A stretch of 36,183 bases of DNA from a virus. Lineage: Duplodnaviria > Heunggongvirae > Uroviricota > Caudoviricetes. This document shows, piece by piece, positions 19,136 through 35,193 of this stretch (position 1 is its first letter; the number at the start of each line of letters is the position of its first letter). The position numbers and the translations under genes are program-made. The notes under the pieces are model-generated. The model ran no database searches. It had not been told where the DNA came from and saw nothing but the letters and a program-made list of their open reading frames with translations. The stretch lies in IMG/VR virus record IMGVR_UViG_2737471857_000022; one strand, written 5' to 3'.

Positions 19136-19432
19136 ATGGGATATTGGGTAAGTAGTGAAATTAATACTAAAATCGATGCTTTAAAATGGCATGTATTTGA
19201 TATTCCTAACGGCTATGGTACTGCTCGTGCTGGTGTCGCTGTAATGCGTCATAATGCTGGTGGTGGGTGGTCTGATGCACATATTAACGTAGATGGTTTG
19301 ACCGTTGCTCGTCGTCGTGGTGGGACCAATTGGGGATCTACTATAAATTCGTTTGTTCCTGCTGGCTGCACCGTCTCCTTTGGTTTAGGGGGTGAAGGTG
19401 GTGTTGAATATTTTAAATTCATGGAGTTTTAA
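19136..19432 (+). CDS. small fibre-module protein, paralogue A (98 aa)
   Basis: AAGGA SD; shares W..(F/Y)FDIPNG(W/Y), Gly-rich middle and TVSF...YFKF with the next two ORFs. Confidence 0.65.
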   Translation: MGYWVSSEINTKIDALKWHVFDIPNGYGTARAGVAVMRHNAGGGWSDAHINVDGLTVARRRGGTNWGSTINSFVPAGCTVSFGLGGEGGVEYFKFMEF

Positions 19433-19434
19433 TT

Positions 19435-19740
19435 ATGGCTGGATGGATAAATCAAAGAATGTCAAACGCTATTAGTATTTGGGCTAATGGTGGATATTTT
19501 GATATCCCCAACGGCTGGGTTACTGATTCATGCGGAATTGTTTTTGCTCATATGGAAGCCATTAACGGTGCTGGTGATCTTGATTCTGAATTGGCTGTAA
19601 ATGGATTGATTGAATCAGGTCATCATGCTGGTGATGCTGGGAGTTGGGGCGCTAGTTCTTTAGTTGGCGCTGGTGCTACCGTTAGCTTTACATTGGGTAA
19701 AGGTAGTTTGCATTATTTTAAATTCAGGAGAATGCACTAA
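19435..19740 (+). CDS. small fibre-module protein, paralogue B (101 aa)
   Basis: Start 2 nt after the stop of A; same motif set. Confidence 0.65.
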   Translation: MAGWINQRMSNAISIWANGGYFDIPNGWVTDSCGIVFAHMEAINGAGDLDSELAVNGLIESGHHAGDAGSWGASSLVGAGATVSFTLGKGSLHYFKFRRMH

Positions 19741-20042
19741 TGGCATTTTGGGTAGATGGCGCTTTGGGGAATAGGGCGGGTAAAGCAAATCAAGGATGGT
19801 TTGATATTCCTAACGGTTGGACAGCCGACGCTTTCGGGACTATTTCATTCTGTGCTCATTCTTCCGGTGGTGGCGGTGGTGACTCTGAATTGCTTATTCA
19901 TGGTTTGTGTGTTTCTGGAAGCCATAAGGGTCATGATTGGGGACAGATTCATTCTTGTATTGCACCGCAAGGGGCGGTAATTACCGTTAGCACAAATAGG
20001 GGGATCGCTCATCTTCGTTATAGACGTTTGAGCAACCGCTAA
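19740..20042 (+). CDS. small fibre-module protein, paralogue C (100 aa)
   Basis: TAATG stop/start overlap with B; same motif set, more diverged C-terminus. Confidence 0.6.
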   Translation: MAFWVDGALGNRAGKANQGWFDIPNGWTADAFGTISFCAHSSGGGGGDSELLIHGLCVSGSHKGHDWGQIHSCIAPQGAVITVSTNRGIAHLRYRRLSNR

Positions 20043-20096: not shown

Positions 20097-20567
20097 ATGA
20101 CTACTAAATTTGATATTTTTTCTGGTGGCCTCGTTGGTCTGTTTCTGCATGAAGAAGTAACTAACACCGATCTTGACAGTGAAAGCTATCTGGAAATTCC
20201 AGAATGTGCGGCTTTCCCGGAAACTGGTGTAGAACGTTCTACTATCGATGTTCCTAACTTCGGTGGTCCGTATAACCGTAAGCTGGTTGGTCGTATGTCT
20301 GTACCGGATATCGAACTTTCGATCAACTACATGCCGGGTAACGAAGTACACGAAAAACTGATTAAAGCAACCGAAGACGGTAAGCGCGTACAGCTTAAAA
20401 TTGCTTACTACATCGACGCTACGAAAAAATCTGGTGTGCACATCGCTTATAACGGCTTCCTGTCTAAAACTACCATGACGGGCGGTGAAGATGCTGTAGT
20501 AGGTCGTTCTTTCACCTTTGTAGTAGATGGTGCTCCGGTTAAACAAGCTGTTTTCCAGAAAGTCTAA
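20097..20567 (+). CDS. major tail tube protein, lambda gpV N-domain-like (156 aa)
   Basis: ELSINYMPGNEVHEKLIKATEDG resembles gpV [23 protein letters not shown] (recalled). Sits directly ahead of the chaperone pair and tape measure; strong terminator downstream. Confidence 0.7.
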   Translation: MTTKFDIFSGGLVGLFLHEEVTNTDLDSESYLEIPECAAFPETGVERSTIDVPNFGGPYNRKLVGRMSVPDIELSINYMPGNEVHEKLIKATEDGKRVQLKIAYYIDATKKSGVHIAYNGFLSKTTMTGGEDAVVGRSFTFVVDGAPVKQAVFQKV

Positions 20568-20987: not shown

Positions 20988-21329
20988 ATGATGAGATCGG
21001 GGCTTAGTAAAGATGAAATGGATAATATGCCAATCACTCTGTTTTGGAAATTATACATTTTCGACACCTACTTAGAACCACAAAGCCCCGCGTTTCATGA
21101 TATGCAGAATGCGATGTTGCAATATTCCATGTATATGACTTCGCAAGGAATGACACGCGAAACTGCACGCAAACTCAAGCCTAGCCAATTCCAATTAATT
21201 AGAGAAGAAAAACTCTTTAAAACTAAAGAAGAACTGGAAGAAATTTCACGCAAGAAAGAAGAAGAACGTAAAGCGGCAATGCTGAACATGTTTGATCCAT
21301 CTTTGCTTGAGAAACTCAGAAGCGGTTAA
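20988..21329 (+). CDS. tail assembly chaperone, gpT position (113 aa); may be made as a G-T fusion by -1 frameshift
   Basis: The frame of this ORF is open back to 20943 and overlaps the last 5 codons of the G-position ORF in the -1 frame. Confidence 0.5.
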   Translation: MMRSGLSKDEMDNMPITLFWKLYIFDTYLEPQSPAFHDMQNAMLQYSMYMTSQGMTRETARKLKPSQFQLIREEKLFKTKEELEEISRKKEEERKAAMLNMFDPSLLEKLRSG

Positions 21330-21340
21330 AGGGGTAATTT

Positions 21341-23770
21341 ATGACAAGACATATAGTAACAATAGAAGGGGATAATAAAGGTCTAAGGAGAAGTACCAAT
21401 GAAGCCGCCGACCTTCTCGATAGTTTGTCTGAAAAGGCAAGTAATATTGATTTTGGTGGTGGCTTATCTGGTCTGACTGGATCTCTTCGTGGGATCGCTG
21501 GCTCTGCTGGTTTGGCTGCTGGTGGTATCGGCTTAGTTGCGACCGCAGTGGTTGCAGCCGCTAAAGCTGGCGCGGAATACGTTAAACAATATTCAGAAGT
21601 ATCTAAGGCGACCGGACTCTCGATTGAATCCCTTCAAAGACTGGAAAAGGAATTTTCTGGTACTGGCCTAACAGTTGAAAAATTTGGCGATATCAACAAA
21701 GACACCTTAGATAAAATGGGTGATGCGTGGGCTAATGGTGGTGGTATTGCTGATGACTTAGAATCGGTTGGTCTTAAGTTAGAAAACTATGCTCACTTCA
21801 TGACAGATCCGCAAGGTGGTATGAAAGCGGCGATCCAAGTGTTCTATGACATGAAGAAAGCCGGAAAATCAATGGCTGAAATCAAGTTCATGATGGAATC
21901 TTTAGCCAGTGATTCAAGCCATATGACCAGCCAGCTTGAGAAATATAATAGTGCTCAAGAGGCGATGATCGCTATTCAGAATCAATCTGTTAACGTCACC
22001 GAAGAAAACGCTAAAAAATATGATAAATTTTCTCAAAATATCAATAAGCTGGAAAATAACCTGAAAGGTGTCGGCATGACCATTACTGGTCCTTTGGTTG
22101 ATAGCTTAAACTGGCTATTTGACTGGTTTAATATTGATTGGGAAAAGAGTTCTCTATTCAGGGCATTAGATCGACTGAATAAAGAAGGCAAGACCGCAAC
22201 TGGCGGTATTCTTAACGCCAACCATAAAGACGCTCAAAAAATTATTGACAAGTACAATAAAGAAAAGCGTTGGAATAATCTGGCAGATTGGGAAAAGGCC
22301 GCGATACGTGGTGCTGGTGTCGACCCTCGTACTGCTGGCTTTGATGTTGAAGGATTTAAGAAACGTTTTGGTGATTCTTATAAGAAAAATGGCTCTCTGA
22401 TTGTTGTCGATAACGGGGAACATCTAACTCGCAAGGCAGATCCTAACCGTGATTTGACTATACCAAATAAACCAGTAAGACCAGAATCATTGGGTAAGTC
22501 TGGCAATGAGAAGAAAGCCGAAGAAGAAGCACGCAAGAAAGCGGAAGAGGCAGCTAAAAAGGCTAAGGAAGCCGCAGAAAAAGCACAGAAAGAACGTGAG
22601 GATGCAATCAAGCGTCTGAATGCACTTGATGTTAAATTGCAAGGGCAGGTCGCCGCGTCTATTGCTTCTCAGAACAAGCAGTTAGAAGCCAGCTTGAAAG
22701 ATTTGGACACTGCTTTAGATCTGGGCTTAATCTCTCAGCAAGACGCAGCCGCGAAACGCCAATCCTTAATCGATCAGAATACTGAAAACGTATACAAAAT
22801 GGTTTTAGGTGCTGATCCGGTTGATGCTTTGAATGCCTTAACACAATTGCAACAAATAAGGGACAACGAGCTAGAAAGCCATAAACGGTTACTTGATGGT
22901 AAAGCTATCTCCTACGAAGAATATATGCGTCGTGTGAACGATACCGAGCAAAACTATTCTCAGATTGAAAATTCTTTACAGGGAATGGATGGTTATAAAA
23001 CCAATCAATTAACTAGTGGTTATGATTATCAAGACTCAAATAATCCGTTTGCTAAATTTAATGCAATCGATAAAGAGAAATCGGAAGCGGAACAAGATCA
23101 TAAGACCGATAAACTCAAGATTGATGGGATCACCGATCCGGCTAAACGGATGGAAGCATTAGAAAAACTCAATGAAAACCATCAAAAACGAATGGCTGCA
23201 ATTGAGAAGAAATATGCTGATGCTCGTCAGTCAATAGCTGATGATATGTATGGCGGTTTTGCTGCTGCAATGACTCTCTTCGGGCAGGAAAACACTAAAG
23301 CAATGCAGATGGCTTTCACTGCTCATAAAGCATTCTCCATTGGACAAGCGACGGTGAACATGTGGACGGCTGCTACCGATGCATGGAACGATCCAACCAA
23401 CGTAACCACAGGTCAAAAAATCGCTGCTGCTGCATTGGCTGTTTCTCAGAACATGGGGAGCATCGCAAACATCAAGTCTACTAACGTTAGCGGTATGGCT
23501 CATGATGGTATTGATAACATCCCTCGTGAGGGTACATGGCTGCTTGATAAGGGTGAACGAGTAGTTGATCAGCGTACTAACGGTGATTTGAAAGACTTCT
23601 TATCTGCTCAAAAATCAGGCGGTGGTAACTCTCAGCCGATTGAAGTTAACGCACCTTTGAACATTAACGGCAACGTTAATAGCTCAGACAAGATGGTCAT
23701 GGATGCTATCAAACGTCATGCTAAGTTAGTTGCTCAGGCGGTAGAAGACGCACAGCGCCGTAAGATGTAA
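21341..23770 (+). CDS. tail tape measure protein (809 aa)
   Basis: Gly/Ala-rich hydrophobic segment near the N-terminus, long coiled-coil Lys/Glu-rich regions, position after G/T; TAAAGGGGTAAT SD. Confidence 0.85.
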   Translation: MTRHIVTIEGDNKGLRRSTNEAADLLDSLSEKASNIDFGGGLSGLTGSLRGIAGSAGLAAGGIGLVATAVVAAAKAGAEYVKQYSEVSKATGLSIESLQRLEKEFSGTGLTVEKFGDINKDTLDKMGDAWANGGGIADDLESVGLKLENYAHFMTDPQGGMKAAIQVFYDMKKAGKSMAEIKFMMESLASDSSHMTSQLEKYNSAQEAMIAIQNQSVNVTEENAKKYDKFSQNINKLENNLKGVGMTITGPLVDSLNWLFDWFNIDWEKSSLFRALDRLNKEGKTATGGILNANHKDAQKIIDKYNKEKRWNNLADWEKAAIRGAGVDPRTAGFDVEGFKKRFGDSYKKNGSLIVVDNGEHLTRKADPNRDLTIPNKPVRPESLGKSGNEKKAEEEARKKAEEAAKKAKEAAEKAQKEREDAIKRLNALDVKLQGQVAASIASQNKQLEASLKDLDTALDLGLISQQDAAAKRQSLIDQNTENVYKMVLGADPVDALNALTQLQQIRDNELESHKRLLDGKAISYEEYMRRVNDTEQNYSQIENSLQGMDGYKTNQLTSGYDYQDSNNPFAKFNAIDKEKSEAEQDHKTDKLKIDGITDPAKRMEALEKLNENHQKRMAAIEKKYADARQSIADDMYGGFAAAMTLFGQENTKAMQMAFTAHKAFSIGQATVNMWTAATDAWNDPTNVTTGQKIAAAALAVSQNMGSIANIKSTNVSGMAHDGIDNIPREGTWLLDKGERVVDQRTNGDLKDFLSAQKSGGGNSQPIEVNAPLNINGNVNSSDKMVMDAIKRHAKLVAQAVEDAQRRKM

Positions 23771-23821
23771 TTAAAAGCCCTCATAGTGATAAATAATCAT
23801 AAAACTATGGGGGCTTTTTCT

Positions 23822-24382
23822 ATGTTCAAATCCAAAAATATTAAAATCACAGATTTTACTCTTAAATCAAAACAACCTTTCTTCAAGGCGCAATCTATTT
23901 CTGGTAAGTTCCAGCGTCGCTTTACTGGTATTCATTTTTATGAAGCAGAATTTACAGCTAATTTCATGGCTCAGGATATTAACGAAGTAAAAGAATTTGT
24001 AGCACGTCACCTTTTTGGTCGTCCTTTTAGTGTGCCACTGTCTTACTTTTCAAAATATACAGGTGATGTACGCCAGATGGTTACGGCTGCTGCTGGTACT
24101 GCTCGCGGTGGGCGTAAGGTGAGAATCTCCAACTTCACCGGAACACTGAAAGCGGGAACTATCATCCAGTTTGAGAACCACAAGAAAATCTACACGATCA
24201 CCGAAGATGTGAAATCAGGTGGTGAAATGAAACTCTTCCCTAACTTGCGTCAGAACGTCCTAGCGGGTGAGGTGATCAAGTATCAGAACGTAGAAGGTGA
24301 ATTTGTTCTCAAAACTGAAAATATCGATTGGAAGATCGCTCAGATTGGCAAGATGAAATTCGAATTAGTGGAGAATGTATAA
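23822..24382 (+). CDS. minor tail / distal tail protein (gpM or Dit position, about 186 aa from ATG 23822)
   Basis: First gene after the tape measure; GGGGG SD 8 nt upstream of 23822; the ORF is open from 23786. Confidence 0.5.
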   Translation: MFKSKNIKITDFTLKSKQPFFKAQSISGKFQRRFTGIHFYEAEFTANFMAQDINEVKEFVARHLFGRPFSVPLSYFSKYTGDVRQMVTAAAGTARGGRKVRISNFTGTLKAGTIIQFENHKKIYTITEDVKSGGEMKLFPNLRQNVLAGEVIKYQNVEGEFVLKTENIDWKIAQIGKMKFELVENV

Positions 24383-25035
24383 TGGCAACTATTCAAGAAT
24401 CATTCAGCAAACTATGCACTAATCTGGACTTCATCGAGGTCTACAACGACCAGACAGGTCAGAACGTGTCTAGATTGACGCTACCGCAGCTTTTCTCCAC
24501 TGGATCGATGTTTCACATTATCGAAGTGATAACAGCGTCAGGGGACGTTCTACGGCTTACAGATGGGTATTTCGATTTGGACTATAACGGATTTACGTAT
24601 CTCGCAACGGGTGATTTTCTTCAAATCTCATCGAATACCGAAGAGAAGGAGATCAACAACAACGGGATCAACGTAACTGTTTCTAACGTTCGCGAAGAAT
24701 ACATTACCCTGATTCGAAACAAGCAATTCGATAAATCAGATGTGAAAATCGAAATGGTGTTCCTGAACCCTAACACGGGCAAGGTTGAAACCACTTACCC
24801 TGTTTTCCGTGGGGTAGTCGATTCCATCGGGATTAACATCGAACATGAATATGATGAGTGTAAAAACGAATCAGAATTTCAGCTTAATAGTATCTGGGAA
24901 GTTCTAGATAAAAACGCTCGTAGTCATGCCTCCGATGGTATCCACCGTTCCTATGTTGGAAACGAGAACGATCTATTCTTCTCTCGTGCCGGGAAGTGGA
25001 ATAGCGAAAGCCGCTGGCATTCATCGAAGAAATAA
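24382..25035 (+). CDS. minor tail protein, lambda gpL position (about 217 aa)
   Basis: TAATG overlap with the previous gene; size similar to gpL (232 aa). Confidence 0.5.
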   Translation: MATIQESFSKLCTNLDFIEVYNDQTGQNVSRLTLPQLFSTGSMFHIIEVITASGDVLRLTDGYFDLDYNGFTYLATGDFLQISSNTEEKEINNNGINVTVSNVREEYITLIRNKQFDKSDVKIEMVFLNPNTGKVETTYPVFRGVVDSIGINIEHEYDECKNESEFQLNSIWEVLDKNARSHASDGIHRSYVGNENDLFFSRAGKWNSESRWHSSKK

Positions 25036-25081
25036 TCCCTTCTCCCTAAGCCTAGTAAATAACTGCATGGAGGTATTCAAC

Positions 25082-25501
25082 ATGCTAAAAACTAGGCTTA
25101 TCACCGATTATATCAATTCTTTAATAGGTCAGGAGTTCGTTCAAGGCGAGAATGATTGCAATCTCATTGCATGTAAGATCATCGATATTCTCGCTGGTAC
25201 TGACCTATATAATTCTCTTTATAAAAAATATTCAACTAAAGAAGAAGGCTTGAAAATCTGCAAAGAATTAAGCGGGTATTCAAATATCCTTCAACCAATT
25301 AAGAAACATTTCAAATTAGTCACTGATGATTTACAGGACGGCGACTTACTGGTCACAGCCCACAAATTAGGAAACCGCAAATATTATTCCGTAGTTCCTC
25401 ATTATTCCGGTTATGGCCTCGTTGAAGAAGATGGTATCTGGATGACCATTCCTGTTTCAGACATTGACTATGAACAAGTTTATAGATTCGGGGGTGAATA
25501 A
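25082..25501 (+). CDS. tail tip assembly protein, gpK position, NlpC/P60-like (about 139 aa)
   Basis: GGAGG SD; ENDCNLIACK with downstream His is compatible with a Cys-His NlpC/P60-type site; stop overlaps the J start. Confidence 0.45.
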   Translation: MLKTRLITDYINSLIGQEFVQGENDCNLIACKIIDILAGTDLYNSLYKKYSTKEEGLKICKELSGYSNILQPIKKHFKLVTDDLQDGDLLVTAHKLGNRKYYSVVPHYSGYGLVEEDGIWMTIPVSDIDYEQVYRFGGE

Positions 25502-28500
25502 TGGGATTTGAAGTATTGGTAGGCGCGGTTATTGCTGGTGCGTCTGCTGGGATGGCTGCTGCTGCAACATTTTCTGTTATGACCGCAGTCGCTATCGGTA
25601 TGGCTGCTGGTGCAATGACCTTGATTGCTTCCACTGTAGGCGCACCAAAAACACCGAAAGTACAAAGCCCAGATAATGCGGTGACACTAGGAACATCAAA
25701 CGATCCTAAGACAGTATTACCCGTCATTTTCGGTACTACCCGCACGGGTGCAATCTGCGTTTACAAAGCAATTTCACAGCGTGAAAACAACAAACTGGTA
25801 CAAATTTTTGCTATTTCCGAAGGTGAGATCGATCACTTTAAAGCACTGCACATCGATAATAAAAACGTTCTCATTAGTCAGAATATGACAATTCGTGATG
25901 GTATTCTCGATAAAGGAAACATTAAAGACGAATACCGCAAAGTGTTAGAAGTCGAGTTTCGCACTGGTAAAAATCCTAACACTGCATTGGATCTGGCTAA
26001 ACATCATTTGGGCGCTGATTGGGATGATCGGTATCAGGGTAACGGCATTGCGACCATGTGTATTGTTTTACGTCGTGATGACAAATCTCTTGCTGCTGGT
26101 GTTGATATTCTCCAGCCAAATAGCCAGGTAGCAGTAGACGTTTGCGGCCTTAAAATCCGTAACCTTGAAACCAATGCTATTGAGGCTAGCACTAACGGCG
26201 TGGACCAGATTTTCCACTACCTAACAAATGAAAAATATGGCTTATCCGTGCCAATTGAAAACATTAACGTTGATTCATTCCTGAAAGTACGTAAACAAGT
26301 ACGCCAGATGGATCTACATTCAAACGGTGCATGTGATCCGAACGCCAGCTTTAAAGAGAACTTGACTAATCTTATGCAGACTTTCGGCGGGGTGATGTTC
26401 GAATCCTTTGGACGTATTACGCTGAAACTGGATGCTCCTGATATTGTTAAGCATACCTTCAATGAAGACAATATCATGATGGGTAAGGTATCACTGAAAA
26501 CAGGTGGCACTAACGGTTATTTCAATACCATTAACGCGATGTATCAAGAACCATCAATTGACTATTCAGAGCAAATGCTACGTTATCCGGCTGATGCTGA
26601 AAACGATGCTACTATTCGTCAAGATGGTCGAATTATCGCTAAAGATATCGAATATCGTTTTGTTAAGTCTAAAGCCCAGATTGATAAACTAGCGAGTGTA
26701 GAACGAAATAAATCTCGTATCACTCAGGTTATCAGCTTCATGACTACTGACGCATTCACTGCCGAAGTTTGGGACGTTATCAGCGTAACCTATGATGAAT
26801 TAAAACTGAATAATTCACTTTGGCGCATTACTGCAATTGATCGCTCGATTGATTCTGGTATTGCTGGGATGATGACTATCACCGCCACAGAATATAATTC
26901 TCAGGTTTATACTGACCTGAACTATGCGGCGACTCCAGACAATAGACCTACTGGTTTACCGGATTCAATGACAGTACAGAAACCGACTAATTTCAGAATT
27001 AAGGCAACTGGTGAGACAATCCACGGTAAAAACGTAACTTTGACATGGGATGCACCGGAAGATTTCAACCGCTACGGTTTCCAGATTGATTACCGTGTAA
27101 GTGGATCGCCTAACTGGATTAAGCTGGGACAGACTTCACAGCAAATTTTCAATATCAATGCACTGGCAAAAGATCGCTCCTACGATTACCGCGTTTGTGC
27201 TTTCGGTATTATTGCTCGTTCCGAATGGGTGGAACTGGTTAACCAGAATCCAGAAGTTACCTATGAACTGCCTACGCCAGTGATCCGCATCAAAAATCAG
27301 GGTAGCACACCAGGAACTTTTGAAGGCAATGATCTGATTATCGAATGGGAAAATCAGCAAGCCTTAGATGTGGTTATCAACGGTGAAGCTAACAAGTTTA
27401 GTGACCTGTTTGAAGCATACATTATCAAGGTAACTAACAAGGCTGGTAAGTCTATTCAGTACCGTACCCGCGATCCTGAATCATGGACTTATACGCTTGA
27501 TATGAACCAGTTTAACGGCCTTTCGCGTGAATTGACGGTAGAAGTATCAGTCAAGGGCTATAACAACTCAGAGAGCGCCCCAGCGCGTTTAGTGGCTATT
27601 AACCCACAGCATAAGCCAATGAAAGGTTTTAGTGCGCGTGGTGGCTTTAATACTGCGTTTGTTATCTGGGCGGATGACGTAGAACATGACTATGCAGGGT
27701 CAATCATCCAGTATGCAACCGATAATACTTTCTCCGATGCAAGGGCAGTGACTACCAATAGCGTTAGTCATACTTCCTTTGATTTGGCTGACGGTGATTA
27801 TTATATCCGTGGTGCTCACTACGATATTTTCGGTATGGATGATGCTGTTTGGTCTGAACCGTATTTCATGCAAATGAAATCTACCATTAGTTGGGACGAT
27901 CAGGACAAAGAAGCACTGGAAGACCTGATCGGTTTACAAGATCGCTTAGATGAAACCATCGCGGATGCTATTGCTCAAGCTGGCGCTAATGCCGATGCTA
28001 AAATCGATGCAATGCATAAGCAAATCACTACCGAAACAGGGCAGACGGTCCAAGCCTCAGCCAATACCTTAAAGAGTCTGATTGCTACCAGCGAGCAAGC
28101 TAGCTCCACTAAGATTGATCAGGTTAAAGCTGAACTGAAAGGCGATATCACCAATGAAGTTAGCGCATCTGCTACTACCCTGAAACAAGCAATTGCTACC
28201 AGTGAGGCAGCAAGCGCAAGTAAGATTGATCAAGTTCGGGTAGAAATGGATGGCAAGATTGCTGGTGTGAATCAGGAAGCAGATGTAAAAATCGATGCTT
28301 TGAAGGGAACCATTAACAGCAAATATAATCTGGCGGTTAATGCAGATGGTCGCGTGGCTGGTATTCATATGAGCGCAACCAACGATCCGGCGCAACCGAC
28401 GAGAATCATCTTTACGGCTGATAAAATCGCGGTAGCTCCACAGAACGGATCGGAAGTATGCCCGTTTGGTATCGAAGATAACAAAGTTTATCTCGATAAT

Positions 28501-29277
28501 GCGATGATTCGTAATGCTGCAATTGGCACAGCCCAGATTAGTGATGCTAGTATCACCACGGCTAAAATCGGCACAGCCCAGATTAACGGCGCTCACATCC
28601 AACACGCACAGATCGGAACAGGTCATATTATTGATGGCTCTATCGATAATGCTAAAATTGGTAACTATATCCAGTCTTATAACTGGAATGGTAACGATGG
28701 ATGGTATATCGGGAAGGATGGCACTTGTCATTTTAGACACGCTAACATTCGTGGTCATTTGGTGGCTGATTCCGGCGAAATGAACAACGTAACGATTAAT
28801 TCAAGTTGCCGCATTTTGGGTATGCTTGATGCTAATCAGGTGCGTGGTGACTTCGTGAAAGCTATTGGTCGTCGATTCCCACATTGGGACGAAAACCCAT
28901 CATTGGGCTATCCCGGTTATCCGCAAGGTACAATCACTGTTCGAATTGAAGATGATCACCCGTTTGATCGTCAGATTATCGTTCCGGCTATTAGCTTTGG
29001 TGGTCTTAATGCGCGTGAAGGCTCGAATAACAATACTTACTATGATAACTGTCGCTTGATTGTTCGCAAGAACGGTGCTGAATTATATAACCGTGCATAT
29101 GGTAGACAGACTGGATTGTATAGTGCTGTTATTGATATGCCAGCCGGACACGGACCAGTTACGCTAACTTTTGAAGTAAGTTCAAGCGCAATCAACAACT
29201 GGACTCCCAGCACATGGATCAGCGATCTTTCTGTAATTGTTACTAAGAAAGCCGCGACTGGTATTTCTGTTTCTTAA
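25501..29277 (+). CDS. central tail fibre / host specificity protein, lambda gpJ-like (1258 aa), with hydrophobic N-terminal 45 aa
   Basis: N-terminal block LVQIFAISEGEIDHF matches the J motif. C-terminus (DDHPFDRQIIVP...DMPAGHGPVTLTFE...VIVTKKAATGISVS) resembles the lambda J receptor-binding end (recalled). Confidence 0.85.
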   Translation: MGFEVLVGAVIAGASAGMAAAATFSVMTAVAIGMAAGAMTLIASTVGAPKTPKVQSPDNAVTLGTSNDPKTVLPVIFGTTRTGAICVYKAISQRENNKLVQIFAISEGEIDHFKALHIDNKNVLISQNMTIRDGILDKGNIKDEYRKVLEVEFRTGKNPNTALDLAKHHLGADWDDRYQGNGIATMCIVLRRDDKSLAAGVDILQPNSQVAVDVCGLKIRNLETNAIEASTNGVDQIFHYLTNEKYGLSVPIENINVDSFLKVRKQVRQMDLHSNGACDPNASFKENLTNLMQTFGGVMFESFGRITLKLDAPDIVKHTFNEDNIMMGKVSLKTGGTNGYFNTINAMYQEPSIDYSEQMLRYPADAENDATIRQDGRIIAKDIEYRFVKSKAQIDKLASVERNKSRITQVISFMTTDAFTAEVWDVISVTYDELKLNNSLWRITAIDRSIDSGIAGMMTITATEYNSQVYTDLNYAATPDNRPTGLPDSMTVQKPTNFRIKATGETIHGKNVTLTWDAPEDFNRYGFQIDYRVSGSPNWIKLGQTSQQIFNINALAKDRSYDYRVCAFGIIARSEWVELVNQNPEVTYELPTPVIRIKNQGSTPGTFEGNDLIIEWENQQALDVVINGEANKFSDLFEAYIIKVTNKAGKSIQYRTRDPESWTYTLDMNQFNGLSRELTVEVSVKGYNNSESAPARLVAINPQHKPMKGFSARGGFNTAFVIWADDVEHDYAGSIIQYATDNTFSDARAVTTNSVSHTSFDLADGDYYIRGAHYDIFGMDDAVWSEPYFMQMKSTISWDDQDKEALEDLIGLQDRLDETIADAIAQAGANADAKIDAMHKQITTETGQTVQASANTLKSLIATSEQASSTKIDQVKAELKGDITNEVSASATTLKQAIATSEAASASKIDQVRVEMDGKIAGVNQEADVKIDALKGTINSKYNLAVNADGRVAGIHMSATNDPAQPTRIIFTADKIAVAPQNGSEVCPFGIEDNKVYLDNAMIRNAAIGTAQISDASITTAKIGTAQINGAHIQHAQIGTGHIIDGSIDNAKIGNYIQSYNWNGNDGWYIGKDGTCHFRHANIRGHLVADSGEMNNVTINSSCRILGMLDANQVRGDFVKAIGRRFPHWDENPSLGYPGYPQGTITVRIEDDHPFDRQIIVPAISFGGLNAREGSNNNTYYDNCRLIVRKNGAELYNRAYGRQTGLYSAVIDMPAGHGPVTLTFEVSSSAINNWTPSTWISDLSVIVTKKAATGISVS

Positions 29278-29295
29278 AATTTAATTCTAATAATT

Positions 29296-29337
29296 AATCC
29301 CGCTTAATTCTTTTGAGTTAGGCGGGATTATTTTTAT
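29296..29337 (+). terminator. terminator after the J-like gene
   Basis: AATCCCGC...GCGGGATT 8-bp stem, 18-nt loop, then ATTTTTAT. Confidence 0.55.
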
Positions 29338-29379
29338 CTAAATAATTCTGCCATTAAATTATAAAATATCGGGGGCGTA

Positions 29380-29658
29380 ATGACTGAAATTATATATGGC
29401 GGTATCGGTGTTATCGCCTTAATTTGTGGTGGTCTTTGGAGACTTCACCGAAATCAATTAGCAACAGAAAATAGATTGTCGAAATTAGAGTCCAATGATG
29501 CATTGTTTAATCAGAAGTTTGAAACAATGCAAAGTAACCACGACCAGATCGCCGAGAGAGTTTATCGCATGGAACAAACACTACACGGTATAGAGAAGAA
29601 AGTGGTTGCGATGGACGCTAAGTTTGACCAAGTTCTCGACATACTCAAACAAAAATAA
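29380..29658 (+). CDS. membrane-anchored coiled-coil protein (92 aa); possible holin or spanin-like lysis component
   Basis: N-terminal TM segment IYGGIGVIALICGGLW followed by a charged helical region; GGGGG SD. Confidence 0.45.
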   Translation: MTEIIYGGIGVIALICGGLWRLHRNQLATENRLSKLESNDALFNQKFETMQSNHDQIAERVYRMEQTLHGIEKKVVAMDAKFDQVLDILKQK

Positions 29659-29676
29659 TAATAAAGGGGTGAATAT

Positions 29677-29847
29677 ATGAAGAATAAACTTAAGAAATAT
29701 TTTGGTTATCTCTTGATTATCGCCCTCACTTATAACGTAGCAATTAGACCTCTGCTAACGTCCTTTGGGCTTGAACTCCCGGCTATGACCGTGGATGAAC
29801 AATTGCTAAGGACACTGGCGGGGGTCTTTTCGTTATTAGGGGGCTAA
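29677..29847 (+). CDS. small membrane protein (56 aa, two hydrophobic segments); holin/antiholin candidate
   Basis: ORF below the 60-aa track cut-off, found by reading; AAAGGGG SD; stop abuts the next ATG. Confidence 0.4.
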   Translation: MKNKLKKYFGYLLIIALTYNVAIRPLLTSFGLELPAMTVDEQLLRTLAGVFSLLGG

Positions 29848-29848
29848 C

Positions 29849-30532
29849 ATGGCAACCAGTACCAATAAACGAAACGCTCTAAGGACTAAGAAAGCGTTAC
29901 GGCAATGGTCTGATAAAGCAACCGATACATTCGAAAGGGCGATAGGGGAAGGGGCGATCTTTGCTGCTCGTGCACTCCAGAAGAAGATTAACAAGAATGT
30001 TGATAGACCTACTCGATGGACTCAGCAAGCTGTAGGTAATACCAACTACAAGAACCGATCAGGGACGAGACACCAAATCTTCATCAAGGGCGCAAGGGAT
30101 AAGGACAAGAAGATCGGCAGTCAGGATGACTATCTGAAACACTATTTCGATGGTGGCAAAATCAATAAGCTAGTGCCAATCGCCAACGGTCAGGTCTTAG
30201 ACTCCCACGGGAACATTAAGGCCATCAAAGGCGGTAAGATGATGCGTAACATCGAAAACGGCAACTTCATCAAGGTAGAGAACAAGGAAGGGACTTTTAT
30301 CATGAAGAAGTACAAGCCTAAGAAATCCCGAACCAAACGCGCTAGGAATGGATCGGCGGTGGCAAAACGTCGCTTAGAGAAACGCATACAGAAACAGAGC
30401 AAGCGAATTGTTGCCGTTAAGTCAGATAAAATTTCTACTCGTTATTCGACGCTAGGATCGTGGGAAAGCAACGAGGAAATGATGCTTAAGAACATTAATA
30501 AGCACATTAAATCGCGCATGAGATACGTTTAA
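29849..30532 (+). CDS. highly basic Lys/Arg-rich protein (227 aa), function unknown
   Basis: ORF translationally coupled to the upstream small ORF; about one quarter of residues are K or R. Confidence 0.6.
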   Translation: MATSTNKRNALRTKKALRQWSDKATDTFERAIGEGAIFAARALQKKINKNVDRPTRWTQQAVGNTNYKNRSGTRHQIFIKGARDKDKKIGSQDDYLKHYFDGGKINKLVPIANGQVLDSHGNIKAIKGGKMMRNIENGNFIKVENKEGTFIMKKYKPKKSRTKRARNGSAVAKRRLEKRIQKQSKRIVAVKSDKISTRYSTLGSWESNEEMMLKNINKHIKSRMRYV

Positions 30533-30570
30533 TCCATAAATACCCTCATAGAATCTTATGGGGGTATAAC

Positions 30571-30918
30571 ATGGCTAAAAATATTTTCACTGAATTTCCT
30601 ACTTATCCGGTCGATCAGCTTTCCGGTATTTTTATTAATGGCATTAGCCCAGAATCTATGACACATGATTTTGAGGCGAAGAGAGTTAAACATAAACAAT
30701 ATAAAGAATGTATCCGCGATCATGAAAAAGGGACCGTGTTTTGTGTCGCTACATTGGCTAAACGTCCTAAATATCGTTTTCGTGTAGGGCAAGAAGTTGA
30801 TGTAGTTAATCCTTATAGCTTTAACTGTCTGGGTGATGCACGCGCGGTGTGTGTAGGCACTGCTCCTTATTATATCAAGGGTATGCGCTTTATTGGTTAT
30901 ATCTTCGAAATGATCTAA
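30571..30918 (+). CDS. hypothetical protein (115 aa)
   Basis: GGGGGT SD lying inside hairpin 30542-30565. Confidence 0.55.
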   Translation: MAKNIFTEFPTYPVDQLSGIFINGISPESMTHDFEAKRVKHKQYKECIRDHEKGTVFCVATLAKRPKYRFRVGQEVDVVNPYSFNCLGDARAVCVGTAPYYIKGMRFIGYIFEMI

Positions 30919-30927
30919 GGGGGTAAT

Positions 30928-31281
30928 ATGTTAAGTAAGCATTTTTCTCGCAAGGAATTTAAATGTAAATGCGGAAAATGTGATTATGATACAATCGACG
31001 CTGAATTACTGGTAATTCTTGAGGATGTACGAGAACACTTCGGTAAACCAGTGATTATTAACAGTGGCAACCGTTGCCCGGCTCATAACAAGAATGTAGG
31101 CGGGGCAACCAACAGCTATCACGTTCGAGGCCGTGCGGCTGACATTGTGGTCAAGGGTGTCTCCCCTGATATTGTCCATGCTTATCTTGATGGGAAATAT
31201 CCTACTCAATACGGCTTAGGAAAATATAAAACCTTTACGCATATTGATTCCAGATCAAAAAAATCACGGTGGAATGGATAA
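30928..31281 (+). CDS. endolysin, zinc peptidase M15 family (117 aa)
   Basis: SGNRCPAHNKNVGGATNSYHVRGRAADIVV ... FTHID gives a His/Asp/His metal-ligand pattern typical of M15 peptidases; TAAGGGGGTAAT SD. Confidence 0.75.
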   Translation: MLSKHFSRKEFKCKCGKCDYDTIDAELLVILEDVREHFGKPVIINSGNRCPAHNKNVGGATNSYHVRGRAADIVVKGVSPDIVHAYLDGKYPTQYGLGKYKTFTHIDSRSKKSRWNG

Positions 31282-31287
31282 AATTAA

Positions 31288-31311
31288 AGCGCCTCTAGTG
31301 GGCGCTTTTTT
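31288..31311. terminator. bidirectional terminator between convergent genes
   Basis: AGCGCC-TCTAGTG-GGCGCT with T6 on + strand and an A/T tract on the other side. Confidence 0.65.
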
Positions 31312-31312
31312 G

Positions 31313-31894
31313 TTAGAATATGCTGGCGACGTTAGCTATATTTCTGACCATTTTTTCATTATAAACAAACGTTTCTGTAGCACCTTCTTTAATATCAAAA
31401 TCACCTTTTACTAGGTTTTTCTTGATAAACAATTCTGCCGCGTATGCGTCTTTTTCGTCTTGAAATTCGAAAGTCTCGATGATATCAAATTTCATCTTAT
31501 TCTGGCATCTTAGCTTATGTTTTCTCGTCAACACATTGTGACTTACTCCAACCTTACCCACATCACCACACCGCATAACATATAATACTGGTTGCCCATT
31601 TTTATATTTGTTGTCATATTTGCTACGATTACACGGGCACACAGTAGGATTATGTAAGAATTGTTTTGCTGTTATATCTCTGATTCTTGCGCAGCTTTCA
31701 CACTCTAGCACAATACGGCTATTGATTGATTTATACTCACCTTTGAATCCGTGATAAATCAAGGGTAAACCCTCGTTTTCAATACGGGTCACGATCCTTG
31801 CTTCCATATCAATTGGATGTGATGGCGCTTTGCCATTTTTGGTGCGGATAAAATTGAACGGGATATCACATGCTTTGCGCACATCATTCATCAT
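31313..31894 (-). CDS. zinc-ribbon plus GIY-YIG-like (T5orf172-type) domain protein (about 193 aa from ATG 31894; ORF opens at GTG 31906)
   Basis: CESCARIRDITAKQFLHNPTVCPC then PVLYVMRCGDVGKVGVSHN..R..H; paralogous to CDS 32423..33421; GAGG SD. Confidence 0.55.
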   Translation of the reverse strand: MMNDVRKACDIPFNFIRTKNGKAPSHPIDMEARIVTRIENEGLPLIYHGFKGEYKSINSRIVLECESCARIRDITAKQFLHNPTVCPCNRSKYDNKYKNGQPVLYVMRCGDVGKVGVSHNVLTRKHKLRCQNKMKFDIIETFEFQDEKDAYAAELFIKKNLVKGDFDIKEGATETFVYNEKMVRNIANVASIF

Positions 31895-31934
31895 AAAAAA
31901 CCTCACTTAATTTATCTTATAGGCATTACCTTTA

Positions 31935-32387
31935 ATGTTGATGATCGAGTTCGTAGAAACCGAATTAACTAAACTGGCTTCCGAAATGGAAGAAGAAACT
32001 CCGGCAGAAGGAACCAGTATTAACGATCTTATTCTGGCAGCAGACACCGCAGATGATAAAGTGATATTCGACGAAGTTGATCCGTCTCTGGTTGAAGCAA
32101 TGAAAGAACCTGAGATCGCCATTGAAGAAACAAAAGAAGAATCTCCAGCAGTTGAACCAGTGGTCGAAGAAGTTAAGTCAGATGTTGAAGAAGCACCGGA
32201 AGTTAAAGTGGAATCTCCGGTAGCCAACATTTTCTCTAACGAAGCAGAACATCGTTCCCCAGCACATGACACTGATTCATTTTGCGATCTTACTGGCTTC
32301 CGTCCGACCATTTGCTTGATCGGTGGCGGTCGTGGTTACTACTCCTGCCCGTGGTCTTCAACCATTACAACAAATTTTTCTCAATAA
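31935..32387 (+). CDS. acidic low-complexity protein (150 aa); existence uncertain
   Basis: Glu/Pro/Val/Ala-rich ORF with host-like codon usage but no clear SD; the antisense ORF 31907..32311 is an alternative reading. Confidence 0.35.
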   Translation: MLMIEFVETELTKLASEMEEETPAEGTSINDLILAADTADDKVIFDEVDPSLVEAMKEPEIAIEETKEESPAVEPVVEEVKSDVEEAPEVKVESPVANIFSNEAEHRSPAHDTDSFCDLTGFRPTICLIGGGRGYYSCPWSSTITTNFSQ

Positions 32388-32422
32388 ATAGTAGTGAACT
32401 TATTATTTTCGAGGACACTAAT

Positions 32423-33421
32423 ATGAATACTACTTTAGCAAAGGATATCGAATTTACCGCAAAAAGCAAACGTGCGACCCCTCCGGTCGAATATGAAACC
32501 AGAATCATTAAAGTTTGTCAAGCGCATGGATGGTTATACAGTGGTTTTGTGCTTCCTGTAAAGAAACCATTCCAGAACACCAAAGTTTGCATAGAAGTTA
32601 ACGGAAAGGTTAAAACGCCATGTATTAGTCATGTTCTAACTGGTCAGTTTACTGGCAAAGATAGAGTATCACCGCCTAAGAAGAAGTTTAGATTTACCGA
32701 AGAAGAACACTTAGAAAACGCTCGCAAGTTCTACAAGCCGATAGGGTGGGATGTGTTAGGTCTGGCTGAACCTTATCAGGGTGTTGACACTAAACTAATT
32801 CTTCGTTGTAAGTGCCACGGAAAGATTCACAAGAAAGGTGATTTACACAATAACCGCAGACAAGGCGGGTTAACATGCCCTTTGGTTAGGGGTGTACTTA
32901 AATCAATTCAGAATGGTAGAAAACAGGTTATCAGAAACAAGTTTGCACAGCGCCCTATGCACTTTTATCTAATTCGTGTTGGCGAGAAGTTTTTCAAATA
33001 TGGAATTACCACTCGCAAAGATCCGATGCAACGGGTAAGAGAACACCAGAAGCACACCAGCGAGAAAATCACCTTTGAATGCTCACATTTGTTTAACATT
33101 GGATGGAAAGCTGGTGATTTAGAAATGGGGATTAAAAAGAATATTCAGGGCAAGAAAATCCCACGTAAGGTAATGAATAGCGGATTCACAGAAACGCTAC
33201 CGATTAGCAAGCTGAAAGATGTTAAATCATTCATCAATGAATACATCCACACCAACCCATCTAAGCCAATGTATTTTGATGATACCAACGCAATCAATCT
33301 GAACAACTACATTAGTGATGAAGACATAGAACGAGATTTATCGCAGTGGATGAATGCACCGTTAGCTGATTTAACACCGGAAAACTTAGAACTCGATTTA
33401 AGCCCTTTAGAGGCTCTCTAA
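32423..33421 (+). CDS. zinc-ribbon plus GIY-YIG-like (T5orf172-type) domain protein (333 aa from ATG 32423)
   Basis: GAGGA SD 7 nt upstream; LRCKCHGKIHKKGDLHNN...LTCP then MHFYLIRVGEKFFKYGITTR...R.REH; paralogue of 31313..31894. Confidence 0.6.
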   Translation: MNTTLAKDIEFTAKSKRATPPVEYETRIIKVCQAHGWLYSGFVLPVKKPFQNTKVCIEVNGKVKTPCISHVLTGQFTGKDRVSPPKKKFRFTEEEHLENARKFYKPIGWDVLGLAEPYQGVDTKLILRCKCHGKIHKKGDLHNNRRQGGLTCPLVRGVLKSIQNGRKQVIRNKFAQRPMHFYLIRVGEKFFKYGITTRKDPMQRVREHQKHTSEKITFECSHLFNIGWKAGDLEMGIKKNIQGKKIPRKVMNSGFTETLPISKLKDVKSFINEYIHTNPSKPMYFDDTNAINLNNYISDEDIERDLSQWMNAPLADLTPENLELDLSPLEAL

Positions 33422-33494: not shown

Positions 33495-35174
33495 TTAAAT
33501 TCCAAATTCCTGTAATGGACCTGATATTTCCTCTTCTGGTTTCCAGTTCTTATCTGTCAGCATGTCTAAACATGGATGCAAAACAAGCCCGTTACTTTCC
33601 AGAATCTGTCTATCATTGATAGTTTTCAAATCAACGAAGATCCGGCCTTTCCTCGGTCCTCTTGAATTTTCTATTACAACTCTCTGGGTCTTGCCATCGA
33701 TGTATTCCAGTACAAACAAGTTTTTGTACTTGTCAATCCTGCTACACCCGATCCGTTTTAGAGCTTGCTTAATCTTAAACCGGACCTTAATGCGATCCTC
33801 GTTGTAAACATCTTCTAAATCAAATTCTGCGAGCTTCTCCCAGCCTTGAGAGTCAACAGAATACATTTCCTCTTCTGCCATCTTGATCTGATTGTAGAGT
33901 GTTTCACGCTCGCTATTGAGGGTAGTAATCTGATCGGCTAGTTCCTTCGTTGCTCCTGTCATAGCAGAAAGGGCAATCAGGTTATCAATCTTGCGTGATA
34001 TCTCATCAACCTGTACTTTCAACGCCGGAACCGGATTAGCCTTATCCTCAGCAATCCAGATTTTATCAGCCAGCAATTGCAATACAGCTTTCTCTAATTG
34101 ATCACCTCGAAAACTCCAGTTTGTATGCACACATGCAATACGACTAGAGCGCATTGCATCGCATGAATAACGATATTGGTTAGGACGTTTGTTAGTTCCT
34201 TTCACCTTAACCATAGCGGAACCGCAATGTTCACATTTCAATAGACCAACACCACTAAGCAAGGGAATAGGTTTAACTTCTTCCTTGTCTCCATAGTTAC
34301 ATGCTCTAACACCAATGCTTTTCTTAAGGTGATAAAACTCAGCGTCATCTAGCACACGAGGATAATAATCCTTTAACTCATACTTAACGCCATCTACAGA
34401 GATTTCCTTGATACCAATCAAAGCGCGGGTATGGAACAACCTTTCAATCATTGCCCGTGACCAGTTTGAATGCCTCTTGTGACTTGCGGCTGGTGGTGGT
34501 GTGTATGTCGCGTTAAGGTGATCCAGTATCTCGGCGGTTGACCGTCCATTCCTGCGTAATTCCACAACTTCCTGAACAATAGGGAAGAAGACCGGATGAG
34601 GAAGCACATAACCAGATGTGGTATCAGTCCACCACATATTCTTTCCAATTTCCTCGATTGCAACAGCCGGATTTTGTGGATTTTCTTGATGAGCTTTAAT
34701 CTTAATCAATGCGCTTGAGTTAGTACGATTGCGCTTAGTCTGACTTTCCTCGTTAGCTCTCGCAAACAACATGACACTCAACAGCAAATCAATAGGATTG
34801 GCATTAACCGATTCCTTGCTATAGACCTTACCATCCATGCCAGTTACGATAGTTATTCCCCTACGGATAATCGAGAGAAATAGCTCTTGTGCTTCAATGA
34901 TGGATTGGCGAGAGATACGGTCTAAGTTTTCCACAACCAGCCAGCTACCAACCGGAACGGATCGACCAATCTCATCCAGAAAGCGAGATAGTGCACCTGT
35001 TCTACTGTTAGCCCCTTTGAATGCAGATACACCAAAATCCTGATAGCTTGTAACTAGCTCAAGATCATATTTTGCGGCTATCTCTGCGGCTGTTCTCTTC
35101 TGGCGTTCATAAGAACTACCATCCGCTTGCTTCATAGACGAGAAGCGAATATACGAATACAGTTTAGTTTTCAT
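33495..35174 (-). CDS. large serine recombinase (phage integrase), about 559 aa from ATG 35174
   Basis: N-terminal resolvase motifs YIRFSSMKQ, SYERQ, LVVENLDRISRQ; zinc ribbon CEHCGSAMV...YSCDAMRSSRIAC; C-terminal coiled coil. Confidence 0.85.
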   Translation of the reverse strand: MKTKLYSYIRFSSMKQADGSSYERQKRTAAEIAAKYDLELVTSYQDFGVSAFKGANSRTGALSRFLDEIGRSVPVGSWLVVENLDRISRQSIIEAQELFLSIIRRGITIVTGMDGKVYSKESVNANPIDLLLSVMLFARANEESQTKRNRTNSSALIKIKAHQENPQNPAVAIEEIGKNMWWTDTTSGYVLPHPVFFPIVQEVVELRRNGRSTAEILDHLNATYTPPPAASHKRHSNWSRAMIERLFHTRALIGIKEISVDGVKYELKDYYPRVLDDAEFYHLKKSIGVRACNYGDKEEVKPIPLLSGVGLLKCEHCGSAMVKVKGTNKRPNQYRYSCDAMRSSRIACVHTNWSFRGDQLEKAVLQLLADKIWIAEDKANPVPALKVQVDEISRKIDNLIALSAMTGATKELADQITTLNSERETLYNQIKMAEEEMYSVDSQGWEKLAEFDLEDVYNEDRIKVRFKIKQALKRIGCSRIDKYKNLFVLEYIDGKTQRVVIENSRGPRKGRIFVDLKTINDRQILESNGLVLHPCLDMLTDKNWKPEEEISGPLQEFGI

Positions 35175-35193
35175 ACCATTTCCAAACAAAAAC

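Follow-up and report, generated by a model that had tools for sequence, protein, structure and literature searches.

One gene of the 36,183-nucleotide stretch of Caudoviricetes DNA analysed here (IMG/VR record IMGVR_UViG_2737471857_000022; the whole stretch is referred to below as the window) probably encodes the trimeric tail-tip protein of a temperate Escherichia coli siphophage. This protein would combine four modules in one chain: the C-terminal half of a protein like lambda gpI (amino acids (aa) 1 to ~100), a baseplate hub with three fibronectin-type-III (FNIII) domains (aa ~100-800), a helical region with a straight fibre of lambda/T1 type (aa ~800-1114), and a lambda-J-type receptor-binding domain (aa 1115-1258). 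The first-pass annotation of the window, made from the sequence without database searches, had described the product as a J-like central fibre, a description that holds up with the qualification that aa ~100 to ~930 are not lambda-J-like in sequence and lie closer to hubs of the pb3/megatron type. The tip protein is a new mosaic combination of known parts, not a new machine.

The open reading frame (ORF) opens with an ATG, codes for 1258 aa and has its stop codon at 29275-29277. The Prokaryotic Genome Annotation Pipeline (PGAP) placed an identical start in an E. coli chromosome that is 97.8% identical, where the product is named 'phage tail tip protein'. The sequence GGGGGTGA lies 4-11 nucleotides before this ATG, which overlaps the TAA stop of the preceding DUF6950 gene (TAATG). 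The gene and its parts, some of them supported by an AlphaFold2 (AF2) model with its per-residue confidence score (pLDDT), are as follows.

25501..29277, + strand: tail-tip protein gene (hub, central fibre and receptor-binding protein), from the ORF list and translation and from Pfam and PHROG tail-fibre matches
25490..25503, + strand: ribosome-binding site GGGGGTGA and ATG, read from the sequence
25501..25641, + strand: Gly/Ala-rich hydrophobic segment, aa 1-47, from hydropathy, composition, conservation and a profile match
25642..25800, + strand: counterpart of the gpI plug and beta-strands, aa 48-100 (APKTPKVQSPD...LPVIFGTTRTG...), from BLASTP and profile
25801..26940, + strand: baseplate-hub domains of HDII/HDIII/HDIV type, aa 101-480, from AF2 (pLDDT about 80), Foldseek and profile
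26968..27888, + strand: three FNIII domains, aa 490-796, from AF2 and from FN3 matches by Foldseek and profile
27889..28335, + strand: Ala/Thr/Gln-rich stretch with two ~33-aa repeats, aa 797-945, read from the sequence
28336..28842, + strand: lambda-J-type tail-tip fibre (Pfam Phage_Tail_Tip), aa 946-1114, from PF09327 and fibre matches
28717..29274, + strand: stretch alignable to lambda J 952-1131, aa 1073-1258, from BLASTP, Pfam and PDB 9wca_J

The gpI-like N-terminal module

The Gly/Ala-rich, hydrophobic character noted earlier for the N-terminus was borne out by composition and Kyte-Doolittle hydropathy over aa 1-47, which include 14 Ala, 7 Gly, 6 Val and 5 Met, with E4 as the sole charge and K50 as the first basic residue. 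The 19-residue hydropathy means of 1.82 (aa 5-23) and 1.88 (aa 24-42) are the maxima of the protein and match the peaks of the two hydrophobic helices of lambda gpI (1.78 at aa 105 and 138); the segment has room for two membrane-spanning helices and contains 13 small-xxx-small motifs. Kept from residue 1 in homologues of only 44-49% identity, and almost invariant among close copies (93-94% identical overall), the segment is, on its pattern of conservation, translated and under selection.

Similarity to gpI was found by several routes. BLASTP aligned gpI residues 156-223 with aa 48-107, past the hydrophobic stretch (34% identity, E=2e-6), and a six-sequence N-terminal profile (aa 1-115) run against 177,635 distinct PDB sequences ranked gpI first (aa 119-219, E=5e-6) and T5 pb3 second (aa 263-304, E=0.006). 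Composition is not the cause, since the ranking persisted when the hydrophobic part was taken out of the profile (gpI E=1.2e-4, T5/DT57C pb3 E=5e-4, next match E=0.6). For the gpI match in the PDB searches profiles were needed, a single-sequence search being insufficient. Among 326 six-frame ORFs of the window (at least 40 aa), phmmer with lambda gpI matched the tip ORF alone (gpI 118-213 to aa 7-98, E=8e-4), tblastn with lambda M, L, K and I as queries gave no gpI signal, and no other gpI-, gpL-, gpK- or gpM-like ORF was detectable by sequence in the window, in agreement with the earlier statement that a separate gpI-like gene is missing. By profile and pairwise comparison, aa 1 to ~100 are homologous to the C-terminal half of lambda gpI (119-219), with aa 1-47 as the counterpart of gpI helices H1/H2. 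Set against gpI in its solved structure (8IYK chain I), aa ~7-104 match residues 119-219 with two hydrophobic helices, equal hydropathy peaks and an APK..TP..D motif followed by LPV(I/L)(F/Y)G..R.G strands, whereas gpI is a separate 223-aa protein and the module of the tip protein is covalently joined to the hub.

The gpI N-terminal domain (aa 14-97) is absent from the tip protein, leaving only the C-terminal half. Even with E values of up to 10 allowed, Pfam Lambda_tail_I (PF06805) matched neither aa 1-130 nor aa 1-480, although gpI itself scores E=1e-28; Pfam is blind to the likeness because Lambda_tail_I models only gpI aa 14-97. The I-J-type fusion or membrane-active leader suggested by the first-pass annotation is essentially right on both counts, with the qualification that of gpI only the homologous C-terminal half (E=5e-6) is present.

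The closed lambda tip offers a guide to what such a module does: gpI is resolved from residue 101, helices H1/H2 are predicted to be transmembrane, the plug (159-175) seals the lumen beneath the tape-measure C-terminus, and the strands thread gaps in the gpJ hub (PMC11101478). On LamB binding the plug separates and H1/H2 are lost from density, for which entry into the outer membrane has been proposed (PMC11101478; PMC12617516). The gpI protein has also been likened to the T5 pb3 plug, with L-(K)-I-J colinear with pb3 (PMC10721106). In the g15 megatron of the gene transfer agent RcGTA and in roseophage R4C, the channel is shut by an N-terminal iris/penetration domain (residues 1-46 and 1-45, respectively) that has been suggested to become a pore in the outer membrane (PMC7296036, PMC10276861). 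As in these megatrons, the large hub protein of the window is headed by a hydrophobic segment of ~45 aa, and by architecture aa 1-47 are the counterpart of the megatron iris/penetration domain. Our literature search found no paper equating the C-terminal half of gpI with this domain.

The module is widespread. Searching 1.84 billion representative proteins with a profile built from five sequences (aa 1-115; E up to 1e-3) gave 140 matches from diverse hub protein clusters, in nearly all of which the module occupies the protein's own residues ~1-120; full-length members have 700-2300 aa with Phage-tail_3 hubs. In a minority the module sits behind another domain. P0083 carries a ThiS/ubiquitin-like domain, then the module, FNIII-A_GpJ and Phage-tail_3, and looks like a complete I-J (gpI-gpJ) fusion, whilst P0124 and P0128 begin with NlpC/P60 (a gpK-like domain) ahead of module and hub and look like gpK-gpI-gpJ fusions. 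P0072 and P0073 are further hubs with the module behind a ThiS/ubiquitin-like or NlpC/P60 domain. The predicted domain orders show the K, I and J functions shuffled as cassettes. Since the joined arrangement is common, it may be lambda that is split, and the tip protein need not be a derived fusion.

A motif at the lambda I/J boundary bears on the same question. Along the module profile, gpI matches up to position 50 and lambda J aa 21-36 (TQLLSVIDAISEGPIE) covers positions 49-64; the motif that would span the two lambda proteins is continuous in T5 pb3, with (V/F)(L/I)PV(V/I)(Y/F)G..(R/K)...(V/I)(F/Y)A..EGEID.F contiguous both there (aa 263-304) and in the tip protein. The colinear match of lambda J aa 21-36 ('AISEGxIE') scores -3 bits, which is not significant alone and suggestive only, and aa 88-150 could not be aligned to lambda J 1-100 by BLASTP. 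We put forward tentatively, at somewhat less than an even chance, that the lambda I/J boundary cuts a motif contiguous in the tip protein and pb3 (...LPVxYGxxRVG... / ...AISEGxIxG), such that the gpI C-terminal half and gpJ would together amount to a hub split in two, the tip protein its natural unsplit form, and one mobile 'plug/penetration' cassette common to lambda-like, T5-like and GTA-like tips.

Hub, fibre and receptor-binding domain

For the central part of the protein we relied on an AF2 model of aa 1-800 (monomer, 16-sequence alignment, mean pLDDT 77). The model is confident for aa 71-476 (pLDDT about 80) and contains beta-sandwich blocks at aa 496-582, 595-700 and 711-792 (pLDDT 80-92). 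Foldseek against the PDB matched it to pb3 of DT57C (8hqz_A, E=7e-35) and T5 (7zhj_b, E=5e-33), and to the tip proteins of JBD30 (8rk3_b, E=7e-25) and Chi (8vjh_A, E=2e-22), lambda gpJ (8iyk_F, E=2e-22) and the T1 tip protein (9l9p_S, E=3e-22). The open form of T5 pb3 superposes on the model with a root-mean-square deviation of 4.3 Å over 478 columns, the 16-sequence profile matches pb3 at E=4e-26, and tblastn with aa 1-480 reaches hub genes of T5-like phages. By model and profile, aa ~70-800 thus form a genuine pb3-type baseplate hub (HDII-HDIV) with three FNIII domains.

Comparison with pb3 (7ZHJ, 7ZQP, 8HQZ), the best structural match for aa 70-800 and also a profile match, extends to a plug closing the tube, which in the tip protein is assigned by homology. 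The two differ in that pb3 holds hub domain HDI in its own chain and ends after two FNIII domains, that in T5 fibre and receptor binding fall to proteins of their own (pb4 and pb5, respectively), and that the pb3 plug is an internal domain refolding to a beta-hairpin, not an N-terminal hydrophobic helical hairpin. HDI is not in the tip polypeptide, where aa 73-114 align to pb3 263-304 and only ~70 low-confidence residues lie ahead; it presumably comes from a separate DUF2163/gp84_N protein, as in RcGTA (g13 + g15) and as gpL in lambda.

In sequence the hub is distant from that of lambda gpJ (8IYK, 8XCJ). BLASTP against lambda J found nothing outside aa 1073-1257, the tip protein has no pairwise similarity to J over aa 1-1070, and Pfam FNIII-A_GpJ, Ig_J and Ig_J_second were not detected in it, whereas lambda J itself matches these three families and Phage-tail_3 at E=1e-39 to 1e-43. 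Structurally the hub is nearer T5 pb3 (Foldseek E~1e-33) than gpJ (E~1e-22), and unlike gpJ the tip protein has the gpI-like module in the same chain. The order hub, FNIII, fibre and receptor-binding domain is shared with gpJ.

Beyond the FNIII domains, aa 797-945 are probably alpha-helical, and this stretch is kept in Escherichia phage DCP80 and in family representatives. The fibre that follows matches PF09327 Phage_Tail_Tip (aa 932-1028, E=1.3e-18), contains a pentapeptide-like repeat run (aa ~1000-1060) and matches the T1 tail fibre 9l9p_S and the F2-pyocin fibre. The receptor-binding domain proper begins at a GDFVKA junction (aa 1116, nucleotide 28846), and Pfam Ig_GpJ_C (PF12421) covers aa 1123-1258 (model positions 2-135 of 135) with 122.2 bits against a cut-off of 26.2 (E=2.1e-35). 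By BLASTP, aa 1073-1257 align to lambda J 952-1131 with 77 of 186 positions identical (41%, E=3e-34), far beyond chance, so that the lambda-J-type C-terminus proposed earlier stands; all three blocks quoted in its support (DDHPFDRQI.V, DMPAG.G.V.LTF and V.V.KK.A.GISV) lie inside this alignment. The best PDB match of the C-terminus is 'A8 gpJ 713' (9wca_J, E=9e-51), ahead of lambda J (E~1e-35). With both lambda gpJ and A8 gpJ (9WCA) the last ~186 aa align end to end, and Ig_GpJ_C, the Phage_Tail_Tip fibre domain and the GDxVK junction are shared.

The two halves of the protein have different relatives. The nearest phage homologue, in DCP80, is 38% identical over aa 29-1119 with an unrelated C-terminus beyond, and the P0013 representative, 75% identical, likewise diverges past aa ~1083-1119. 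Among 78 proteins of at least 600 aa matching in the module-family comparison, none has an Ig_GpJ_C-type end, and lambdoid J proteins match only aa ~845/898-1258 of the tip protein. Backbone relatives that differ past aa ~1083-1119, together with lambdoid J proteins that match only the C-terminal part, indicate that the lambdoid end was acquired by a backbone of pb3/megatron type. From these alignments, the lambda-J-type receptor-binding domain was evidently gained by module exchange at the conserved GDxVK junction, and the exchange is old (best amino-acid identity 55%, nucleotide match none).

The DCP80 record deserves separate mention. This 141-kb record (PQ671644, region 8763-31256) is filed under Straboviridae/Gaprivervirus and has motA and endonuclease VII genes, and it also has a siphophage-type tip module, related by homology to that of the window and made up of a tape measure, a gp84_N hub and a 1252-aa tip protein. 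The record may be misclassified or a chimeric assembly.

Tip opening, receptor and alternative explanations

By homology with lambda, T5 and RcGTA we infer how the tip might work. The tail would be closed by a trimer of the tip protein, three DUF2163 hub subunits and a hexamer of the distal tail protein (Dit). The three N-terminal modules would fold back into the tip lumen as a plug, holding the tape-measure C-terminus and closing the channel. When the receptor-binding domain engages an outer-membrane porin, probably OmpC-like, the signal would be relayed up the fibre and FNIII domains, the hub domains would swing open, and the freed N-terminal hydrophobic hairpins would enter the outer membrane, providing a path for the tape-measure protein and DNA.

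Several observations weigh against this reading or parts of it. The E-values of the gpI homology are modest, a single-sequence phmmer search against the PDB giving gpI only at E=0.43 and tblastn being blank. The AF2 model, a monomer only, gives no structural support for the N-terminal module, with pLDDT 22-43 for aa 1-70 and short helices at aa 5-11, 21-31 and 36-44 with pLDDT below 45. Pfam Phage-tail_3 reaches 19.5-21.5 bits on the hub, under its cut-off of 23. The RcGTA megatron was absent from the phmmer and profile PDB searches and from the Foldseek top 50, and the megatron link is architectural. Outer-membrane insertion of the gpI/megatron helices is itself a hypothesis of the literature, which the T5 authors hold not to be general for siphophages.

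The last point leads to the principal alternative, in which the N-terminal module serves only as a lumen plug and tape-measure dock, is expelled or displaced on triggering, forms neither membrane insertion nor channel, and owes its hydrophobicity to packing. In its favour, a plug/tripod role is the only one seen directly in gpI structures, membrane insertion having been deduced from TMHMM predictions and vanishing density; the T5 authors reject a pore-lining N-terminal helix as a general solution, and the periplasmic conduit of lambda has been ascribed to gpH* (PMC12617516). However, the module has two successive uncharged stretches of ~20 residues with hydropathy >1.8 and many small-xxx-small motifs, these stretches are conserved across very distant hubs beyond what a plug requires, and opened gpI helices are directed at the membrane (PMC11101478). 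We therefore consider a plug without membrane insertion unlikely. Far less probable is that the hydrophobic N-terminus acts as a signal peptide or as a signal-anchor to the inner membrane during assembly, or that the start is mis-called and the leader untranslated. A long hydrophobic N-terminal stretch and internal Met codons at aa 18, 27, 34 and 39 would suit such readings, but the N-terminus (MGFE...) has no positive n-region and no cleavage motif, and its 46 residues exceed a Sec signal. Moreover, the ATG is coupled to the upstream stop and preceded by a strong Shine-Dalgarno sequence, PGAP chose the identical start, conservation at the protein level runs from residue 1 (homologues 44-49% identical, about 140 clusters), and in some members the module is internal, behind ubiquitin-like or NlpC/P60 domains, a position that rules out a signal-peptide function. 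On charge, length, translational coupling and conservation, the signal-peptide and mis-called-start readings were rejected.

As to the receptor, lambda host-range mutants show that few substitutions can shift the specificity of J. Pairwise identities of receptor-binding domains, computed from the GDxVK junction onward, were 43.8% between the window and lambda, 53.3% with A8, 55.5% with the J of VT1-Sakai and 56.9% with that of phage 640R1; A8 and VT1-Sakai share 61%, whilst lambda is only 42-44% identical to each of the other four. The J proteins of O157 prophages are 55-57% identical to the window domain. On these identities, the window domain groups apart from lambda, in a subgroup with an OmpC user among its members. 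That user, A8, is a chimeric lambda gpJ with its C-terminus from a natural E. coli prophage J, and its DNA delivery into lamB ompC double-deletion cells requires supplied OmpC (PMC11338833). This placement makes OmpC the best guess, and we propose an OmpC-like outer-membrane porin as a lead rather than an assignment. Against a firmer statement, receptor specificity cannot be read at 53% identity, and the caution of the first-pass annotation that the specific receptor cannot be called was well placed, the domain being 44% identical to the LamB-binding domain of lambda and closer (53%) to OmpC-using A8; our literature search found no receptor typing for the closest J receptor-binding domains.

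There is an appreciable chance, a little below even, that the receptor is not OmpC but LamB, the one used by lambda, or else a different porin or a TonB-dependent transporter. It is a bona fide Ig_GpJ_C domain, the lambda domain retains 44% identity to it, and J specificity is known to change through few substitutions. Set against this are its grouping with A8 (53%) and the VT1-Sakai/640R1 type (55-57%), domains that are mutually 61% identical, the low identity of lambda to the window, A8 and VT1-Sakai/640R1 domains alike, and the OmpC dependence of A8 delivery described above.

Genomic setting and significance

The genes upstream of the tip gene form a recognizable tail-tip cluster.

21341..23770, + strand: tape-measure protein (PHROG tape-measure families, E=6e-64)
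23822..24382, + strand: distal tail protein, Dit (phrog_1302 E=3e-16; PGAP start)
24382..25035, + strand: small hub protein with a DUF2163 / phiJL001 gp84_N attachment domain (PF09931)
25082..25501, + strand: DUF6950 protein (PF22262, E=3e-12)

PF09931 scores 26.0-26.2 bits on the small hub protein (cut-off 26), for which PGAP uses the names 'DUF2163' or 'baseplate hub domain-containing protein'. This protein is the counterpart of lambda gpL and RcGTA g13 and presumably supplies HDI; with just two Cys (positions 12 and 160), it lacks the four-Cys 4Fe-4S site of lambda gpL and the RcGTA/R4C hub proteins. The DUF6950 protein occupies the slot of lambda gpK and RcGTA g14, an equivalence by position only; its gene holds the same position in roseophage CRP-406, and comparison with PDB sequences found no relative among solved structures. 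As in RcGTA and R4C, the hub is divided into a small DUF2163/gp84_N protein and a large protein, and the order Dit, DUF2163 hub, small protein (DUF6950 here and in CRP-406), large protein is that of RcGTA g12-g15 and of CRP-406, whose large protein opens with a hydrophobic leader of the same kind, followed by IIYGTQRVGG. The RcGTA/R4C megatron differs in ending with a fibre-binding domain for separate fibres, whereas the tip protein carries its own lambda-type fibre and receptor-binding domain.

Downstream of the tip gene lie a Peptidase_M15 endolysin and a large serine recombinase, and the window is a prophage. The recombinase (33495-35189, - strand; Resolvase, Recombinase and Zn_ribbon_recom domains) is the likely integrase. 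Of 5426 complete E. coli genomes, 57 carried the 6-kb tip region (80-98% identity), in each case on the chromosome and frequently in pig isolates; the prophage family thus reaches a frequency of about 1%, and many of its hosts are porcine enterotoxigenic E. coli. Megablast of 12 kb (window 21000-33000) against phage genomes found no nucleotide-level relative except an unrelated 415-bp T-even fragment. This fragment (31941-32355) shares 99.5% identity with inh, the gene for the 'inhibitor of prohead protease' in Krischvirus (RB49-like T-even) phages of E. coli. It lies in an ORF at 31935-32387 between a CapR-homology-domain ORF (31313-31906, - strand) and an unannotated 379-aa ORF, and seems to have passed recently between a virulent myophage and a temperate siphophage.

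The window also encodes a 1136-aa side tail fibre (15687-19097) with a T4 gp34 trimerisation domain and a C-terminal Peptidase_S74 intramolecular chaperone, its gene located upstream of the tail-tube and tape-measure genes and not after the tip gene; the phage is therefore likely to carry two receptor-binding devices. Directly 3' of the side-fibre gene and 5' of the tail-tube gene (20097-20567), at 19136-20042, are three tandem paralogous ORFs (98, 101 and 100 aa) that are Gly-rich, carry the motif 'FDIPNGW' and have no Pfam match. Their products could be fibre-assembly or fibre-accessory proteins.

When joined to the hub, the gpI C-terminal half, which matters for function, escapes routine annotation because Pfam Lambda_tail_I covers only the gpI N-terminal domain, and pipelines falsely report 'no gpI' in such phages. 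The pairing of a T5/GTA-like tip backbone with a lambdoid receptor-binding domain shows that host-range modules have been exchanged across very different E. coli siphophage lineages. Outer-membrane insertion of the gpI/megatron helices is so far a proposal, for which a natural one-chain version in an inducible E. coli prophage would be a convenient test bed. If one plug/penetration cassette is indeed common to lambda-like, T5-like and GTA-like tips, the tip protein would offer an E. coli-based single-polypeptide system in which to test these helices as an outer-membrane DNA channel.

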